Source: an uncultured Tidjanibacter sp.
GTDB lineage: Bacteria > Bacteroidota > Bacteroidia > Bacteroidales > Rikenellaceae
Direction of reading: 5' to 3'
Length of the DNA stretch: 64,000 bases
Assembly: GCA_947852905.1 (NCBI GenBank)
Contig: CANTVF010000005.1
Location: 44,053-108,052 of the forward strand
Part shown: piece after piece, positions 1 through 7,584 of the stretch
Numbering within the stretch: position 1 is the stretch's first letter
Layout: each line of letters starts with the position of its first letter
Notes under the pieces: generated by a model
Told to the model about the DNA's origin: nothing
Database searches by the model: none
What the model saw: only the letters and a program-made list of their open reading frames with translations
Position numbers and translations under genes: made by a program

Positions 1-816
1 TTATCCTATCACTACATCAAACCACAACTACTTCAAATACGATTGCTGGGAATTTTCGCTGTTACTTATTCTATTACTGCATCAAACCACAACACCTCGC
101 CTTTCATGGTCGTAGTGGTAACGGCTGTTACTTATTCTATTACTACATCAAACCACAACTCACTCCTTGGCACAGGAGCAAACATTGCAGCTGTTACTTA
201 TTCTATTACTACATCAAACCACAACCCAGACAGCGACACCCGTATGACGGCCAGTGTTGTTACTTATTCTATTACTACATCAAACCACAACTCCGAGGAA
301 TTAGGTTTATCTCCTGATTCTGCTGTTACTTATTCTATTATTACATCAAACCACAACACTCAGCACCTATATATCAAGTAGGAAAGGCTGTTACTTATTC
401 TATTATTACATCAAACCACAACGGCGCTTCTTTAATAGGTACTGGCGCTAAGCTGTTACTTATTCTATTATTACATCAAACCACAACCGCGACATCAAAC
501 AAAACACCGGATCTCGAGCTGTTACTTATTCTATTATTACATCAAACCACAACTATAATGAATACGAAGAGAATGACCGCGAAGCTGTTACTTATTCTAT
601 TATTACATCAAACCACAACTGAGTTGCAGATAATAATTGACACTTGAAGGCTGTTACTTATTCTATTATTACATCAAACCACAACATACCGTTGCATTGA
701 TTGAGCGCCCAATTAGCTGTTACTTATTCTATTATTACATCAAACCACAACTACTATTCGTTTACCTTCATCTTCGGCTAGCTGTTACTTATTCTATTAT
801 TACATCAAACCACAAC
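1..816 (-). CRISPR. Type II-C CRISPR array: 36-bp repeat (minus strand GTTGTGGTTTGATGTAATAATAGAATAAGTAACAGC), 12 full repeats + 1 truncated, 12 spacers of 29-30 bp
   Basis: Repeats at 58-93, 124-159, 190-225, 256-291, 322-357, 387-422, 452-487, 518-553, 584-619, 650-685, 716-751, 781-816; degenerate partial repeat at 1-28. Degeneracy increases leftward and the tracrRNA pairs with the minus-strand 5' half, so transcription is on the minus strand. The array may continue left of the window. Confidence 0.98.
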
Positions 817-953
817 GACTGGAACGCTGATAATTGATTCTCTGTTGGTTATGTGTGCGATGCGTGGAGAGAAAATCGTGTCGGAGGATCCGGCGAAGTG
901 TGTTTGATGCTGTTTTCCCGAATGTCAAAGAACGTCGAAGTGTAGCGAAGGTA
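817..953 (-). promoter_or_regulatory. CRISPR leader between cas2 and the first repeat
   Basis: Non-coding gap adjacent to the invariant end of the array; a TACCTTCG -7-like box on the minus strand lies immediately downstream of the cas2 stop codon. Confidence 0.75.
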
Positions 954-1292
954 CTAAAAAAATTCTAATTGTTGCGGAAGTTCCGGTCTGTTGCGTTCCG
1001 TTTTACCCCAGAAGTTCATGATTTCACCGTATTGTTTGTCCGTTACGCTAAGTATGCTTGTGTAACCGGCCGGAGGCATCGATTTGCGTACCCGGTTGAT
1101 GTGTACCTGCATGTTTTCTTTCGAGGCACAGTGCCTTACATATACCGAGTATTGCATCATCGAGAAACCGTCTTTCTCAAGCGCCTTGCGGAATTGTACT
1201 GCATGGCGACGTTGGGTTTTGGTATTGGTCGGCAGGTCGAAGAATACGAATAGCCACATGATTCTGTATGCATTTAGGCGCAGTTCCGTCAT
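954..1292 (-). CDS. cas2: CRISPR-associated endoribonuclease Cas2
   Basis: MWLFVFFDLPT...GFSMMQYSVY Cas2 motifs; likely start MTELRLNAY at 1292, just after the cas1 stop. Confidence 0.96.
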   Translation of the reverse strand: MTELRLNAYRIMWLFVFFDLPTNTKTQRRHAVQFRKALEKDGFSMMQYSVYVRHCASKENMQVHINRVRKSMPPAGYTSILSVTDKQYGEIMNFWGKTERNRPELPQQLEFF

Positions 1293-1297
1293 ACGGA

Positions 1298-2185
1298 TTA
1301 TTCTAATAGTGGGTATGCGATCTTTTTCTGTGTTCCGGCAAAGCATTTGGCCAATGATGCAGAAGTGAATGTCAGTCCTACGTCGAGCGGGCGCAATATC
1401 TTTTGGAAACGTGTATCGGTAAACAGAATGCGTAGCAGTTCGCCTTTGACATCTTTCGTAAGTCGTACATTACCTTCAGAACAGAGCCTGTAGACCGTCT
1501 CGTCCACGTAAGGTCTGTAAGGTTCCATAATGTCGTCCGCCAGTGGAAAGGCGTTATACCTGTTGCGGTGGAAAATGCCGAATGCCGGAAACAGTCCCGA
1601 TCCCATGAGCGATCTGGCTACTGCTGCACGTAATATGGTGTAGCCGTAATTAAGAAGATTGTTGGGCGGGTACCCTTCGCGGCTGCGTATGAAGTCTTGT
1701 CCGAACAGTTCCGCCCAATATATTCTGGCGGCGGCGCCTTCTCGGTTGTCCGTATCGCCGCTTTTTACGTTTTGGTAATAAGGCTTTAGTCTGTCGCCGT
1801 CCTTACCCAGTTTATTCAGCAGTGCGGACTGATTCCGGATTTTCGCTTCGACGGTCTGGCGCCACAGTCCCTTTTTCAGCGGCTCGCCGGCCTCCATTTG
1901 TGCTCTGTATGTTTCGCTTTGCGTCCGGTTGGAATCGAGATTTTGCAACATGGCATTGGGCATGCGGTTGCCGTCGCAGAAAATGACCGCGACGTTATTT
2001 GCCGAGAGCGCGTTGAGCAAAGGTAGCGTGACGGAAGTCTGCTGATGTTCAAGTATTACTACTCCTATGTCTTCTATAGGTATGCTTCGGTACGCATCCG
2101 GCGCTTCTTTCGTTCTGACTATCATTTGGTCGTTGTGCAGACTGAGGCAGAATGGGGTCGAGAAGAACAGCGTGCGTTTCAGCAT
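1298..2185 (-). CDS. cas1: CRISPR-associated endonuclease Cas1 (type II)
   Basis: IPIEDIGVVILE, NREGAAARIYW, NNLLNYGYTILR, LADDIMEPYRP motifs; 295 aa. Confidence 0.98.
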   Translation of the reverse strand: MLKRTLFFSTPFCLSLHNDQMIVRTKEAPDAYRSIPIEDIGVVILEHQQTSVTLPLLNALSANNVAVIFCDGNRMPNAMLQNLDSNRTQSETYRAQMEAGEPLKKGLWRQTVEAKIRNQSALLNKLGKDGDRLKPYYQNVKSGDTDNREGAAARIYWAELFGQDFIRSREGYPPNNLLNYGYTILRAAVARSLMGSGLFPAFGIFHRNRYNAFPLADDIMEPYRPYVDETVYRLCSEGNVRLTKDVKGELLRILFTDTRFQKILRPLDVGLTFTSASLAKCFAGTQKKIAYPLLE

Positions 2186-2190
2186 GGCGT

Positions 2191-5100
2191 TCAGCGTTTG
2201 AATTTTATTTCACCCGTTACGCTCAAATCGAAATCATAGCCTTCGACAAGCATATTGAAGTTTGAGACGCTCAAGCGTAATTTGGGCGATGGTTCGGAAG
2301 CTACGAATCGGGAAGCTCCGGCGCCGCAAATCTCTTTGAGTGCAGTCTGGTCGCGAGCTTCTTGATGGAAAAGAAATTGCGCTCGCCCTTCAACAGACAT
2401 AACGGTTAATTTATACAGCCTTTTCACAAGCTCTTTTTCCGAGCATTCGTACAATTCTTCGGCCGAGTGTTCGTAGAAGAGCACCATGGTGCCTGTCTTG
2501 AGTATGTATTTCAATCCGTAGCCTTTGGCATCGGTCAGAGGTACGAGGTCGGGACGCGACGTTTTGTCGGCGCTTTTCTTGAAATACTGGGCGGCCTCGA
2601 TCGTACTGACGATCTCGAACGATCGCTTGCATTGTCCTTTTCTGTCGGTTCCTTCGTAAATGGCCATGCAGTAGTTGCTGCCGTAGGATACATAGAAGGG
2701 GCGTTTGTACTCCATGGCGGATTGGTCGCGTTGCAGTTTCTGCCCCAACGGTTTCGGCGACATGGTTTGTCCGGCATAAATCCTGACTTTTCGGATAGGC
2801 ACGCGTTTGGCTTCGTTCATCCATATCGTGTAATTTTCCGTATCCATGGCCGTTTTGAAACCTACGGCCTCTGTAGCTTCCTGCACTTTGGCCCTGACTG
2901 TATCGTCTACGATTTTGGCCACATCCGACTGTTGCAGTTGCGGCAGAGCTTTGCGCACGACGTATTTTATGTCTTCGTCGCGTCGTACCGCTCCGTAGAA
3001 CGTTTGCAAATGCAGTGCTCCGCGTGCCGTGTCGCCCTGCATGTATATGACATTTCCGTTTTTGTCGCGCTTTATTTTGCCGCGGACGCGCAGTTTTTTG
3101 CGTGTCTGTTTCGGCATATTGTCGGGAGTATGGTGGGCGACGAGCAATTCGTCGGCAACGGCCGCGACGTCCTCCGTAAATGTAGGCCACGGTTTTTTGA
3201 AATGCGGTTTCGGTCCTTCGCCGCGTTTGTAACTCTCCTCTTCGCCGGCATACTGCGCCCACTTGTCGTATTCTCTGCGGCCGATGCATGCTATGGTAAT
3301 GGCGTCGATGCAGTGGTGTACATGATTGATACGCTCTTTTTTCGTGTACTCTTTCTGCAATCCCCATGCCGTGCGGAAGGCGCTGGTAGTCGCGCCTTTG
3401 ACTATGTAGATACGGTCGAAAACGGTGTTGAGGTACATGCGGGCGTATTTGCCTATTATACCTATGTCTACGCCTTGCCTGTTGCTGAATCCTTCAGGAA
3501 TCTCGGTCATGGTGAACCGGGCGCATTTGTCGCGCCAATAGTCGCGGTGCAGTTCCAGATAGTGGCGGCGTATTATGGCGTTGTCCTTATCCTGTTTCGT
3601 CGACGCATTTTTACTGCGGCGGATTTGATATTCGATTTGCATTTGCAGGTCGTCTGCTTTTTCCAGCCAGCCGAGCGATTCTATGCGATTCGTTATTTCG
3701 TCGTGGTTGGGTAGTTCTGCCGGCAGTTTGTTGCGCTTTATGCGGCGGTTGAAGTCTATTTCGCACAAGGTCTTGTTCGCTTGCGAGTCGTCGCCTCCGC
3801 GCGAGCGTGGAACTGTATGCTCGATGTCGAAACGGGAAGATCCTCCGATGAAATCTGTTATGGAGATATGTTGTTTGTCAGTATCCGTGTATAGGCATAT
3901 GTGTCCTTGTTCTTCCCACAGTCTGTATTTGAGGATGTCTTCGCCCGACGGGGTTATCTCCTTGCCCGTGGCATCGGCATAGAGTTGTCGGATCTCGTCC
4001 GCATAACGTCTGTTTTCTGCTTCGCGTTCCCTCTGGTATTGTTCTATGGCCTTGCGCATGTTGGCGTTGTTGAGTCTGCGCGAGAATTCTATGTTTATTT
4101 TAGTGTGACGGTCTATTTTGCCTTCGCGTAACAGGGCGTTTATCAGTGCGCGCAGTCGGAACAGCGACCGCATGGCCATGGGATTTCGTACTGCCGGCGT
4201 GCGCGGCGATCCCAGAAGGAACAGGCCGTTTTCGTCTGGTTGCGCTTTGGGGTATGTGTCGATCATGGACGGATGGTATATGCGCGCGAGGCGGGAGTTG
4301 TCTATGTCGAGACTGTTGCGCAGATAGTCGCATATGCATTGTTCCTTCGTCGACTGACTGTTCAGAGGGTTGTCCCAGAAGTCTTCGAGTATCTCCAGTA
4401 TGTCGTTTTCGGTTTCCCGGCGCCGGTTATCGTCGGCGTAGATGTGCGGCGGCAATACCGCTTTCAGATTGGCCATGAAGACGGCTTCGTCGTAGCGGTA
4501 TCCACGGCGCAGGTACGGGAGTATTTTGTTAATCGCATTCAGGCTTAGCGATGCGTATTGCTGCGGCACTCTTATCGAGGCGAAACTCTTCGCTTCGTCT
4601 TCGGATAGCCGTAGCTTTTCCTTGGCCCAGTCGCAGAGCTTGTCGTCGTCGTCGAACGAGAACAGTGCGTGCCATACGTCGTTCAGAATATTGTCGTCGC
4701 TTTTACCCTCGCCGAGAGTGTAACGTTCCGTTATGTTGCGGAGCCAGTCGTTGCCGAATACGGATATCAGAGATGCCGTGACCGGACATCCGGAGACTGT
4801 CGAGGTACGTGCGAAGTTGAAACGGTATGGGGCATCGCTTTTCTCGCCTTTGCAGGCATATTGTCCCTTGCCGGCGATTTTTTTCGCTATCTCATCGAAG
4901 TCGAAATGGGGTTTGCTCTTGCGCATGAACAGCGGCGATATCGTTTCGATTTCCCGTTCCGACAGAGGACGGAAGTCCGTATCGCCCGGAGCGAGGATGC
5001 GTATGTTATTGATGTACGACAACATGCGGAACTCCTCGAAACGTGGATGCGATACCGGGCAACGGCTTTTATTTTTCTCGAACTTACATTTTCCGACCAG

Positions 5101-5856
5101 ACCTTTTTGCGATTTCAGCGGTCTTTGGTAGAATATGGCGCGTTCGAGCGCACGGCACAGATCGTCCGGCAGGGCTTGTCGGGTGCATATGGCTTTGAAT
5201 TCGTGCAGGTAGTGTTCGTTGCGCGATGTGTATTTCTTGCGGATATTTTCGCCGTTGTTGTAGAGCATGTAGAAATATTCGCCCAGATATTCGCATCCGG
5301 CGGCGGCCATGTCGGCCGAAAGGTCGCTGATGCCTTGTTTTACCTTTCCCTCTTCGCTGTCGTTGCCGGTCTCTTTGCGGTTGCTGATGAATCCGCGGCG
5401 TTGCGCGATATGATACATGGCGCGTCCTATGGCATGGCGGTCTTTGCGGTGGTGGAAATCGAGTGTTTCGGTCAATGCTCTGAAACGGTCGTGATACGGA
5501 TTTTTGCCCGTATTGTCATCGGTACGTTGCCATTGCATGAACTCTTCGTTCTGCGGGTATATTTTCTCCTTGCGCCATTTGTCGAGTTGTTCTTCGGTCA
5601 GACCGGGGCACATGTCGTATTTTATGAGTACCTTCAATACTTCTATTTTGCGCAGCCGGCGGCGGAAATAGTGACGGCGCAAGGCGCGTGCTGCCGTGCG
5701 GTCCTGTACTGCGGGTTTCTCGGAATTCTTGTCGCGTGCGACGCCTTCCTGAAATATGTCTACGCCTCTATCTAAAAGTTCGTACTCGTCGTCGTGCTGT
5801 TCCACTATCGCCCAGCCGAGAGAGTTGGTGCCTAAGTCGAGTCCCAATATCTTCAT
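2191..5856 (-). CDS. cas9: Type II-C CRISPR effector Cas9, 1221 aa
   Basis: RuvC-I MKILGLDLGTNSLGWA (true start 5856), Arg-rich bridge helix, RuvC-II INIEFSR, HNH DIEHTVPRSRGGDDSQANKTLC..FNRRIK, RuvC-III NHVHHCIDA. No csn2 or cas4 in the locus, hence II-C. Confidence 0.98.
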   Translation of the reverse strand: MKILGLDLGTNSLGWAIVEQHDDEYELLDRGVDIFQEGVARDKNSEKPAVQDRTAARALRRHYFRRRLRKIEVLKVLIKYDMCPGLTEEQLDKWRKEKIYPQNEEFMQWQRTDDNTGKNPYHDRFRALTETLDFHHRKDRHAIGRAMYHIAQRRGFISNRKETGNDSEEGKVKQGISDLSADMAAAGCEYLGEYFYMLYNNGENIRKKYTSRNEHYLHEFKAICTRQALPDDLCRALERAIFYQRPLKSQKGLVGKCKFEKNKSRCPVSHPRFEEFRMLSYINNIRILAPGDTDFRPLSEREIETISPLFMRKSKPHFDFDEIAKKIAGKGQYACKGEKSDAPYRFNFARTSTVSGCPVTASLISVFGNDWLRNITERYTLGEGKSDDNILNDVWHALFSFDDDDKLCDWAKEKLRLSEDEAKSFASIRVPQQYASLSLNAINKILPYLRRGYRYDEAVFMANLKAVLPPHIYADDNRRRETENDILEILEDFWDNPLNSQSTKEQCICDYLRNSLDIDNSRLARIYHPSMIDTYPKAQPDENGLFLLGSPRTPAVRNPMAMRSLFRLRALINALLREGKIDRHTKINIEFSRRLNNANMRKAIEQYQREREAENRRYADEIRQLYADATGKEITPSGEDILKYRLWEEQGHICLYTDTDKQHISITDFIGGSSRFDIEHTVPRSRGGDDSQANKTLCEIDFNRRIKRNKLPAELPNHDEITNRIESLGWLEKADDLQMQIEYQIRRSKNASTKQDKDNAIIRRHYLELHRDYWRDKCARFTMTEIPEGFSNRQGVDIGIIGKYARMYLNTVFDRIYIVKGATTSAFRTAWGLQKEYTKKERINHVHHCIDAITIACIGRREYDKWAQYAGEEESYKRGEGPKPHFKKPWPTFTEDVAAVADELLVAHHTPDNMPKQTRKKLRVRGKIKRDKNGNVIYMQGDTARGALHLQTFYGAVRRDEDIKYVVRKALPQLQQSDVAKIVDDTVRAKVQEATEAVGFKTAMDTENYTIWMNEAKRVPIRKVRIYAGQTMSPKPLGQKLQRDQSAMEYKRPFYVSYGSNYCMAIYEGTDRKGQCKRSFEIVSTIEAAQYFKKSADKTSRPDLVPLTDAKGYGLKYILKTGTMVLFYEHSAEELYECSEKELVKRLYKLTVMSVEGRAQFLFHQEARDQTALKEICGAGASRFVASEPSPKLRLSVSNFNMLVEGYDFDLSVTGEIKFKR

Positions 5857-5933
5857 ATGTCTTCGCTTCTTTTTCGTAAATTTATGGCAAAAGATCGTGA
5901 CTTTCAAATTTTTTTTGATTATATTTGTATCGT

Positions 5934-6022
5934 AAGTAATTCTACATCTTACCACAATAAGGCTATATGCCGAAGGTTTTAATGCCTATGTCTCCGCGTA
6001 CTTCCGTGGAGACACTTTTTTT
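5934..6022 (+). ncRNA. tracrRNA
   Basis: Anti-repeat TAATTCTACATCTTACCACAAT (5937-5958) complementary to the repeat 5' half; nexus hairpin GGCTATATGCC (5961-5971); further hairpin; 9-bp stem terminator 5990-6013 with U-tract 6016-6022; TATATTTG -7 box at 5920-5927. The 5' end is approximate. Confidence 0.9.
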
Positions 6023-6279
6023 GTGATGCATACTGGCCGTAGTATATTCCGTTTCGTCCGAAACAGTGTGAATCGTATGCTTATGGTAAAAATAAATCCT
6101 CTGTCCGATGAATTTGGGCGGAGGATTGTTTTTCGGTGTCAGCAACCGGTGCGGTTTTGGTTTTTCAGGTTGTTATTATATGAGTTGACTGGAGCGGAAA
6201 GACAGTCCCGGATGAAAAACCATACTTGTCGGGATATTGCTGACAAGTACGTTTTTCGTCGACTGCTTAATTCCTAAGT

Positions 6280-7584
6280 TTAATTGCTTGATTCCGTTTT
6301 CGGATTTTCGGGATCCTCTGTCTTGTTATTCAATTGCATACACTCGATGTCGCGGATATAATATATCCCGTCGAAAATATTGAGCCAATGACCTTGGATC
6401 AAACTCAATGTTGGCAATGCCGGAAATTCGAATACTGTATTCCGGTAGCCGTCGAGCCATCTCAAACTTTCAAAATCTATGAATGCGTAAGGAGCATCGT
6501 CTGTAAAGCGAGCGATCTGCTGTTCCAATTTGCCGGATTGAAGTCCATCGGTACGATTCAACGAAGTAACTGCAATAGAATATACTTCATTACCCAAAGC
6601 ATGAAAAAGGTTCTCTCCCAATAAATTGAAGTAATAACCGGTTGAATTGTCATATATGGCTTGCGAACCGTCTTTTTCAGCATGCATATTCGCACACCAG
6701 ATAATCAACTTTTCTTCGGGGAAATTCTTTCTGTACCATAATACGTTTTCAGCCATTGCCTTGTCTCGTATCTGTATTCGCATGGAACCGAGAAGACCGC
6801 TGAATACTCGATATTTAAGCCGAGATGAAAAATCGAAAAAATTACGATCCATATTTATGAGCCATTGTTTCATTGCGCTCAAATCGGTAGTATTTCCGTA
6901 AATGTCTATCAGATAATCGACTCGGTTTCGGATAGTATTCAATATGGAAATATATTCTAATTGTTCTTCGAAGGTTATGGATTCCGGATCGGTCACATAA
7001 TTTATTAATTGCATCCATAAAATACTTAATCGATCCCAGGAAATGTTAAAATCGTCTGTTGGGGGATAACTATCTAATATTTGCTGTGCAATAAGAAGAT
7101 CATAACCTAAAATATCGCAATCCATACCTAAGAATTTAAAATATCCGCTATCGAGCATTTCCAGAATCGGGTCGATAGACTCACGATGCATAATCCAAGG
7201 GGTGAAAAAAAGCAGATCTTCAGAAGTAAGCATATCGCCTGACGGCAAACGGCCGAAAGCATATCCGGACAACATCGGCGCCATTTCGAATACCAATGTT
7301 GTAAAACCGCATTCATGCAGTTTACGCAACAAGCCGATTCGTGCTGTGGTCGATGTGATATCGAAGTGCATCTGCTCTCCCAAAATGACGATGGACTTGT
7401 CCTTCACGATTTCTTCGATAAAATTCCATTGGTCGTCGTCTTGCATGGCTATGGCATTTCGAGCGATATTCTCTTCGGCAGAAAGCGTATCGCTCCATGG
7501 AATGACTGTATTGTTGCGATTCTGCTGCCCCAATGCCGTGATGCACAGCAAGCTGAATAATAAACCGATAATTCCTCTTCTCAT
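6280..7584 (-). CDS. Secreted erythromycin esterase-family protein
   Basis: Signal peptide; LGEQMH...R...GFTTLVFE, FLGMD, RDKAMAENVLW and KLIIWCANMH match the Ere-family motif order. Confidence 0.8.
   Translation of the reverse strand: MRRGIIGLLFSLLCITALGQQNRNNTVIPWSDTLSAEENIARNAIAMQDDDQWNFIEEIVKDKSIVILGEQMHFDITSTTARIGLLRKLHECGFTTLVFEMAPMLSGYAFGRLPSGDMLTSEDLLFFTPWIMHRESIDPILEMLDSGYFKFLGMDCDILGYDLLIAQQILDSYPPTDDFNISWDRLSILWMQLINYVTDPESITFEEQLEYISILNTIRNRVDYLIDIYGNTTDLSAMKQWLINMDRNFFDFSSRLKYRVFSGLLGSMRIQIRDKAMAENVLWYRKNFPEEKLIIWCANMHAEKDGSQAIYDNSTGYYFNLLGENLFHALGNEVYSIAVTSLNRTDGLQSGKLEQQIARFTDDAPYAFIDFESLRWLDGYRNTVFEFPALPTLSLIQGHWLNIFDGIYYIRDIECMQLNNKTEDPENPKTESSN

Follow-up and report, generated by a model that had tools for sequence, protein, structure and literature searches.

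The nearest characterized orthologue of the Cas9 considered here is RspCas9 (Rikenellaceae sp., WP_035473639, 1213/1214 aa), which was described together with its repeat (GUUGUGGUUUGAUGUAGAAUUGGAAUGAGAAACAAC), its trans-activating CRISPR RNA (tracrRNA; ...CUACAUCUUACCACAAUAAGGCCAUGGGCCGCAGGUUUUAAUACCUAUGUCUCCGCGUACUCCGUGGAGACUUUUUUU) and a working single guide RNA (sgRNA) by Gasiunas et al. (2020, Nat Commun 11:5512; PMC7606464). RspCas9 has the protospacer adjacent motif (PAM) NVNDCCY, whose positions 5 and 6 are 100% C (PMC7606464); this PAM is abbreviated N4CC below. A locus of this kind occupies positions 1-6022 of a 64,000-nt stretch (the window, to which all coordinates refer) of contig CANTVF010000005.1, positions 44,053 to 108,052, from an uncultured Tidjanibacter sp. 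(assembly GCA_947852905.1), its CRISPR array starting before window position 1. It is very probably a chromosomal type II-C adaptive immunity locus of an uncultured Alistipes-like (Rikenellaceae) host from the chicken gut, with a Cas9 that belongs to the RspCas9 clade. The locus was recovered from four chicken-gut metagenome runs of one study (X1-X4), at 92-93% of sampled words and on contigs without differences.

Three further sets of described systems bear on the locus. The repeat type has already been published as AshahL36 of Alistipes shahii WAL8301 (PMC6390457). For II-C arrays, PMC12080349 (citing Dugar et al.) and PMC13187072 describe a promoter in each repeat and acquisition of spacers at the transcriptionally last repeat, and according to PMC12080349 leader-repeat hairpins have not been identified in this subtype. 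In II-A systems (Liao et al. 2022, as cited by the same two papers), the leader pairs with the repeat next to the newest spacer, covering the nucleotides bound by the tracrRNA.

Gene Content and Relationship to RspCas9

The minus strand carries, in order, cas9, cas1, cas2, the leader and an array of 36-nt repeats, while the tracrRNA is divergent on the plus strand (Table 1). The preliminary description, made from the sequence alone, had reported a complete type II-C system with 12 spacers. All of the parts that it listed are present, and the 12 spacers of the window are indeed unique, but the array itself runs past the start of the window. Contigs of four metagenomes add another 29-nt spacer (...ACTATAAAATCGACGTCGCCGAACTG) and another repeat before position 1, so that 12 is a lower bound, with at least one spacer more.

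Table 1. Features of the locus, in window coordinates.
Feature	Position	Strand	Remarks
CRISPR array	1-816	-	12 full 36-nt repeats and 1 partial repeat; 12 unique spacers
Leader	817-953	-	137 nt; -7-box-like TACCTTCG at 945-952, directly after the cas2 stop
Leader element	891-912	-	AGCATCAAACACACTTCGCCGG; can pair with the junction 817-821 and nt 1-15 of the first repeat (781-816)
cas2	954-1346	-	ORF of 130 aa; PF09827; TIGR01573, 61.6 bits
cas1	1298-2185	-	295 aa; type II NMENI class; TIGR03639 (cas1_NMENI), 290.8 bits (cut-off 120)
cas9	2191-5856	-	1221 aa from ATG; TIGR01865, 466 bits (cut-off 100)
Cas9 catalytic residues			RuvC D7, E590, H848, D851; HNH H680, N703
Putative cas9 promoter	5877-5884	-	TAAATTTA, close to the Bacteroidetes -7 consensus and 20 nt upstream of ATG; position conserved in relatives
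tracrRNA -7 box	5920-5927	+	TATATTTG, consensus TAnnTTTG; conserved in relatives
tracrRNA	5933-6022	+	About 90 nt; predicted 5' end
Anti-repeat	5943-5958	+	
Nexus GGC/GCC	5961-5971	+	
Hairpin 2 AGGT/GCCT	5974-5987	+	
Terminator hairpin	5990-6013	+	
T7 run	6016-6022	+	

The locus contains the two hallmarks of type II, namely one large effector with RuvC-like and HNH domains and a tracrRNA whose anti-repeat is complementary to the repeat. By gene content the subtype is II-C, because cas9, cas1 and cas2 occur without csn2 or cas4 in view within the window (the far side of the array lies outside it); the neighboring open reading frame (ORF) at 6280-7584 (-) is not a cas gene. The earlier II-C assignment agrees with this content, with the NMENI class of Cas1 and with the solved structures that match Cas9 best, all of which are II-C Cas9s (GeoCas9-like 9ar4, E 3e-37; Neisseria-type chains, 1e-31 to 1e-27).

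Each of the three cas ORFs is full length. The Cas9 ORF contains the Pfam domains RuvC_III, HNH_4 and Cas9_a, and among 24 aligned family members there is no variation at E590, H680, N703, H848 or D851, while conservation of D7 is at least 90%; D7 aligns to D8 and H680 to H582 of chain 9ar4_A. These alignments confirm the 1221-aa Cas9 with RuvC and HNH residues that had been read from the translation, and, as far as its sequence can tell, the enzyme looks intact. For cas2, the Pfam match spans residues 30-108 of the ORF; because the domain begins only at residue 30, the more likely start is M19 (codon at 1292, 5 nt past the cas1 stop), which would give a protein of 112 aa.

More than 6000 Cas9 homologues were scored, of which the best non-self match is 70% identical and dozens at 64-68% identity bear the names Alistipes Cas9 or Csn1. 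A scan of one genome per species yielded 318 related loci, and the best 80 of the 318 were analyzed. These 80 come mostly from Rikenellaceae, with some from Muribaculaceae and Prevotellaceae (Cas9 identity 51-68%), and include many Alistipes, Rikenella microfusus DSM 15922, Millionella massiliensis, Tidjanibacter, Muribaculaceae and Leyella stercorea DSM 18206. Their arrays all share 36-nt repeats starting GTTGTGGTTTGATGTAG, with 29-30-nt spacers. Some contigs with a Bacteroidales cas9 and tracrRNA sit in metagenome-assembled genomes (MAGs) labeled Clostridia, Christensenella or Lachnospiraceae, labels that probably reflect binning contamination rather than horizontal transfer.

Compared with RspCas9, the window Cas9 is 69% identical over 397 aligned residues of the first 399 of RspCas9 (supplement of PMC7606464). 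Three traits of the RspCas9 clade (clade VIII, PAM-interacting (PI) group 22 of Gasiunas et al.) recur in the window: a Cas9 of about 1210-1230 aa, a 36-nt repeat starting GUUGUGGUUUGAUGUAG, and a divergent tracrRNA that lies upstream of cas9 and contains two hairpins besides a conserved nexus. The two tracrRNAs share their modules (anti-repeat CUACAUCUUACCACAAU, AAGGC nexus, second hairpin and GUCUCCGCGUAC..GGAGAC terminator), and the logic of sgRNA fusion is likewise the same. The window repeat differs in having A at position 17 and a divergent 3' half that ends in AACAGC rather than ACAAC, and the one exact protospacer of the window is flanked by N4TC instead of N4CC.

The other described systems are more remote or less complete. 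Nme1/Nme2Cas9 of Neisseria meningitidis and GeoCas9 of Geobacillus (6jdq, 8uza, 9ar4) share II-C gene content, RuvC/HNH architecture, 36-nt repeats beginning GUUGU and an anti-repeat end ACAAU followed by AAGG, but they are distant in sequence and the window Cas9 is about 140 aa longer. AshahL36 has a 36-nt repeat of the same family (GTTGTGGTTTGATGTAGAATTTCGATAAGATACAAC); it is reported as an orphan without cas genes (PMC6390457), whereas in the window the cas operon is complete and the 3' half of the repeat has diverged. The novelty suggested in the preliminary description is weakened: no near-identical Cas9 has been characterized, but the clade has a characterized member, RspCas9, from which guide design and a clade PAM are known. 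The window Cas9 is one more orthologue of a densely sampled clade with thousands of sequences at 50-70% identity.

A Covarying tracrRNA and Its Pairing with the Repeat

The tracrRNA is real, being conserved and having hairpins that covary. It is found in 77 of the 80 related loci, each time at the same place and oriented divergently from cas9, and RNAalifold applied to 67 distinct copies recovers three hairpins (nexus GGC/GCC, AGGU/ACCU and a terminator stem) with compensatory changes on both sides in 8 of 15 pairs. Only two consensus TAnnTTTG boxes occur in positions 1-6400, at 2018-2025 (-) and in front of the tracrRNA at 5920-5927 (+). About 6 nt downstream of the latter starts GTAAGTAATTCTACATCTTACCACAATAAGGCTATATGCCGAAGGTTTTAATGCCTATGTCTCCGCGTACTTCCGTGGAGACAC, and the T7 run follows at its 3' end. 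The tracrRNA with promoter and terminator that had been proposed is thus a conserved feature of the clade. No Rfam family was found for the tracrRNA or the leader at gathering or E<=1 thresholds.

When the CRISPR RNA (crRNA) part of the repeat is fused to the tracrRNA through GAAA, the fold consists of an 8-bp lower stem, a 2x2 U/U loop, a 6-bp upper stem and then the three hairpins, at -42 kcal/mol (z = -7.7 vs shuffles). This fold reproduces the duplex of the preliminary description, in which the upper stem was given as 6-7 bp; it has 6 bp for the eight newest repeats, which carry A17, and 7 bp for the older G17 repeats. In relatives the upper stem reaches at least 10 bp (GAUGUAGAAU with AUUCUACAUC). 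It is shorter in the window because the repeat diverged (GUAAUAAU or GUAGUAAU) while the tracrRNA did not. The predicted sgRNA has the layout GUUGUGGUUUGAUGUA-GAAA-UACAUCUUACCACAAUAAGGC...UUUU, and the earlier suggestion that an sgRNA could be designed directly is reinforced by the orthologue RspCas9, for which the same design rule already works (PMC7606464).

Two side observations concern these RNAs. The middle of the window repeat has also diverged from GAAU. Other contigs in runs X1-X4 match only the tracrRNA core (window 5940-6002), with indels and 3' parts typical of other Alistipes, and several clade members therefore coexist in these chickens.

Direction, Promoter, and Growth of the Array

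The tracrRNA and the functional sgRNA of RspCas9 set the sense of the crRNA and thereby fix the direction of the array, which runs in the direction of the cas genes and away from cas2. In this sense the repeat is GTTGTGGTTTGATGTAATAATAGAATAAGTAACAGC. The 12 full repeats (58-816) start 65 or 66 nt apart and are separated by spacers of 29-30 nt that all differ from one another, and a thirteenth repeat is cut by the window edge to a 28-nt tail at 1-28. The eight repeats closest to cas2 (322-816) are identical, each with A at position 17. The four farther full repeats have G17 in place of A17 plus single changes, the partial repeat has two further changes, and the older variants lie at 1-291. The older repeats, all relatives and complementarity to the tracrRNA anti-repeat point to G as the original base at position 17.

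This gradient matches that of the relatives: of their 41 complete arrays, all 41 have a cas2-proximal repeat identical to the consensus and 28 have a degenerate distal repeat, and the opposite pattern never occurs. As in II-A, new spacers would thus be added at the repeat that is transcribed first. Recent acquisition at the cas2 end is supported by the uniqueness of the spacers, by the newest spacer, which matches a contemporary element perfectly (see below), and by the derived A17, whose presence in all of the eight newest repeats implies at least seven acquisitions after that mutation.

In the scheme that we infer for the locus, a Bacteroidetes-type promoter just past the cas2 stop would drive leader and array as one pre-crRNA in the direction of the cas genes. 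The divergent tracrRNA of about 90 nt would pair with nt 1-16 of every repeat (8 bp, UU/UU loop, 6-7 bp), and RNase III would probably trim the duplex. Cas9 would bind the duplex, the nexus and the two 3' hairpins, and the complex would cut DNA matching the 29-30-nt spacer beside a 3' PAM. In this PAM, position 6 is probably C and position 5 a pyrimidine, against N4CC in the relative RspCas9, and new spacers would enter at the cas2-proximal repeat. The transcription starts, processing, cleavage and PAM of this scheme are all predictions.

Another way to produce the crRNAs would be from a promoter within every repeat, with neither a leader promoter nor RNase III, as in the II-C systems of Neisseria and Campylobacter. 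It is the published II-C paradigm (PMC12080349), and the -7 box of the window leader is imperfect. The repeat, however, has no TAnnTTTG on either strand, the only boxes in 1-6400 being the two named above, and relatives carry a -7 box (TATATTTG, TACATTTG or TATCTTCG) right past the cas2 stop. The polarity of the array is also opposite to that of the Neisseria-type textbook II-C described in PMC12080349, where acquisition occurs at the last repeat. In addition, the covarying helix between leader and first repeat described below implies a transcript that runs from the leader into the array. Repeat-internal promoters are therefore unlikely here. Judged from its polarity and from the lack of a TAnnTTTG box in the repeat, the array appears to depart from the logic that is typical of, though not defining for, II-C, and a single leader promoter is preferred.

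Predicted Pairing of the Leader with the First Repeat

About 77 nt upstream of the first repeat the leader contains a conserved block, which in the window is AGCATCAAACACACTTCGCCGG at 891-912. In most loci its best pairing with repeat nt 1-18 is found at a common position. The variable positions of the block are mostly A/G or C/U, which preserves wobble pairing. When RNAalifold was applied to 48 leaders (100 nt upstream of the first repeat), a long-range helix was obtained between this block and the 5 nt before the repeat plus the 5' half of the repeat. The predicted helix has 91.8% of cells paired vs 14-62% in slid controls, and 50 cells with changes on both sides vs 4-14. Four junction pairs covary, and none of 500 shuffles reaches the observed covariation score or percentage paired. 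In the window, 3 of the 5 junction pairs form and the minimum-free-energy fold contains the helix, though its overall energy is not unusual (z = -0.6).

The helix resembles the II-A leader-first-repeat hairpin, as presented in PMC12080349 and PMC13187072, in that the leader pairs with the repeat next to the newest spacer and covers nucleotides bound by the tracrRNA, which in II-A would block extraneous crRNA. It differs from that hairpin in occurring in a clade with II-C gene content and in being long-range, with about 60-75 nt enclosed and the leader/repeat junction included. By analogy with II-A, the hairpin would hide the first repeat from the tracrRNA and suppress extraneous crRNA derived from the leader.

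We consider the chances evenly balanced that the whole clade (Rikenellaceae, Muribaculaceae and some Prevotellaceae), including RspCas9 and the present locus, is II-C by its genes and II-A-like in its array logic, with one leader promoter and acquisition at the first repeat. This combination of II-A-like polarity with a covarying leader-first-repeat hairpin is the most interesting lead from the locus, and it is clade-wide rather than locus-specific. If it is confirmed, the generalization that II-C arrays have repeat-internal promoters, last-repeat acquisition and no leader-repeat hairpin would need a qualifier, and the suppression of extraneous crRNA known from II-A would recur in a Cas9 lineage of gut Bacteroidales.

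Spacer Targets, the PAM, and the Activity of the Locus

The newest spacer is spacer 12, which is leader-proximal (752-780). It matches 29/29 a separate contig in all four runs X1-X4, with at least 255 nt of unrelated sequence on each side. The depth of this contig relative to the host is approximately 1.9x in X1, 4x in X2, 0.7x in X3 and 0.3x in X4, and because it varies between runs the contig behaves as a separate replicon. Within the 90 nt recovered around the target one frame is open and seemingly protein-coding, and this fragment has no match in the phage collection. The possibility that the match is part of another array was rejected, as its flanks are non-repeat. Written in crRNA sense, the target is TAGCCGAAGATGAAGGTAAACGAATAGTA and continues with GAGGTCGAGAAG; the flank GAGGTCG is N4TC.

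The preliminary description had proposed to search the spacers against phage and plasmid databases. There only weak near-matches were obtained, and the exact target, with its N4TC flank, came from the metagenomes. When the whole array was compared with 50,697 phage records by blastn, only weak Microviridae near-matches to spacer 6 were returned, plus MT838156.1, and the plasmid search with the array gave only chance or repeat-driven matches. No matches were found in exact 22-29-mer scans of IMG/VR with spacers 5, 6 (degenerate), 7, 8, 9, 10, 11 and 12, or in scans of JGI metagenomes with spacers 12 and 6. In runs X5 and X6 related strains occur, but the window spacers are absent. Spacer 6 (358-386) has near-matches of 24-26/29 in an intergenic hairpin of several Microviridae (26/29 and E 0.2-3 in the blastn search), and in 2 of 3 cases the flank is GACACCA, which is N4CC. 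A separate observation concerns MT838156.1 ('UNVERIFIED: Bacteriophage sp.', human feces), a 5.6-kb record that ends in two family repeats and one spacer and lacks cas genes; it represents either an Alistipes array's distal end that was carried into the virome or a phage-borne mini-array.

At the level of the family, 18 close relatives were chosen, and about 175 spacers of the first 11 were compared with phage records; only one microvirus was matched, by three spacers of one MAG. This MAG is of A. senegalensis (Cas9 68% identical), and its three spacers match the rodent-feces microvirus PQ006385.1 with 1-3 mismatches. The protospacer flanks are TGAACGG, GGTAATG and TAGGCGG, with CG or AT at positions 5-6, and PAMs may thus vary within the RspCas9 clade. 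Microviruses seem to be recurrent targets of this clade.

These flanks bear on whether the PAM of the window Cas9 differs from the N4CC of RspCas9, in which case the earlier idea of an uncharacterized PAM would be right despite membership in the clade. The only exact protospacer has the 3' flank GAGGTCGA, none of the A. senegalensis flanks is N4CC, and the C-terminal 220 aa of Cas9 are just 57-63% identical to relatives, compared with about 67% overall. PI domains diverge faster than the rest of Cas9 (Gasiunas et al.; PMC7606464). On the other hand, most of the spacer 6 near-matches do carry N4CC, and N4TC is one transition from N4CC, as expected of an escape mutant that coexists with its host; moreover, one exact protospacer and a handful of near-matches are too few to set a PAM apart. 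A different PAM is therefore a real possibility, though we lean against it. N4YC fits both window flanks, that of the exact protospacer and that of the homologous near-match. The practical value of the window Cas9 is small unless its PAM differs, since the clade already has a characterized N4CC member and a published sgRNA.

Several findings weigh against a working locus of the kind proposed. The -7 box of the leader (TACCTTCG) is one base off consensus, and G17A cuts the upper stem to 6 bp vs at least 10 bp in relatives. A target with a perfect spacer match is present alongside the host, reaching about 4x host depth, and its flank is N4TC, not N4CC. The array is identical in all four runs X1-X4, so that no ongoing spacer acquisition is seen, and the locus was found in no RNA run among the runs listed. 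Either interference against the spacer 12 target may fail or the PAM may differ from that of RspCas9. The N4TC flank may mark an escape variant one transition from CC, an element surviving in other hosts, or a different PAM.

Taken further, the persistence of the matched target in the same samples, the identical array across the four runs and the weakened upper stem could all be features of a relic or silenced locus that looks intact and has lost both interference and acquisition. The three full-length cas ORFs, with every family-invariant catalytic residue in place, argue against such a loss, as do the eight identical A17 repeats, with the acquisitions since the mutation that they imply, and the newest spacer with its perfect match in a contemporary element. 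A relic is quite improbable on this evidence, and from the sequence we infer that the locus is active.

Chromosomal Surroundings

A location of the locus on a mobile element was considered and rejected, as the neighbors are housekeeping genes. The rest of the window is ordinary chromosome, with SecA, a GHMP kinase, an RND efflux pump, adenylate kinase, FabH/PlsX, shikimate-pathway genes, RecQ and two tRNAs. The ORF that adjoins the tracrRNA (6280-7584, minus strand, 434 aa) has a weak erythromycin-esterase match (PF05139, 28.4 bits, cut-off 26.4) over about 70 residues. Across the whole window, the Bacteroidetes -7 motif TAnnTTTG was found 54 times vs 33 expected, a count reached by no shuffle, and most copies lie just upstream of ORF starts, which fits a Bacteroidota chromosome.

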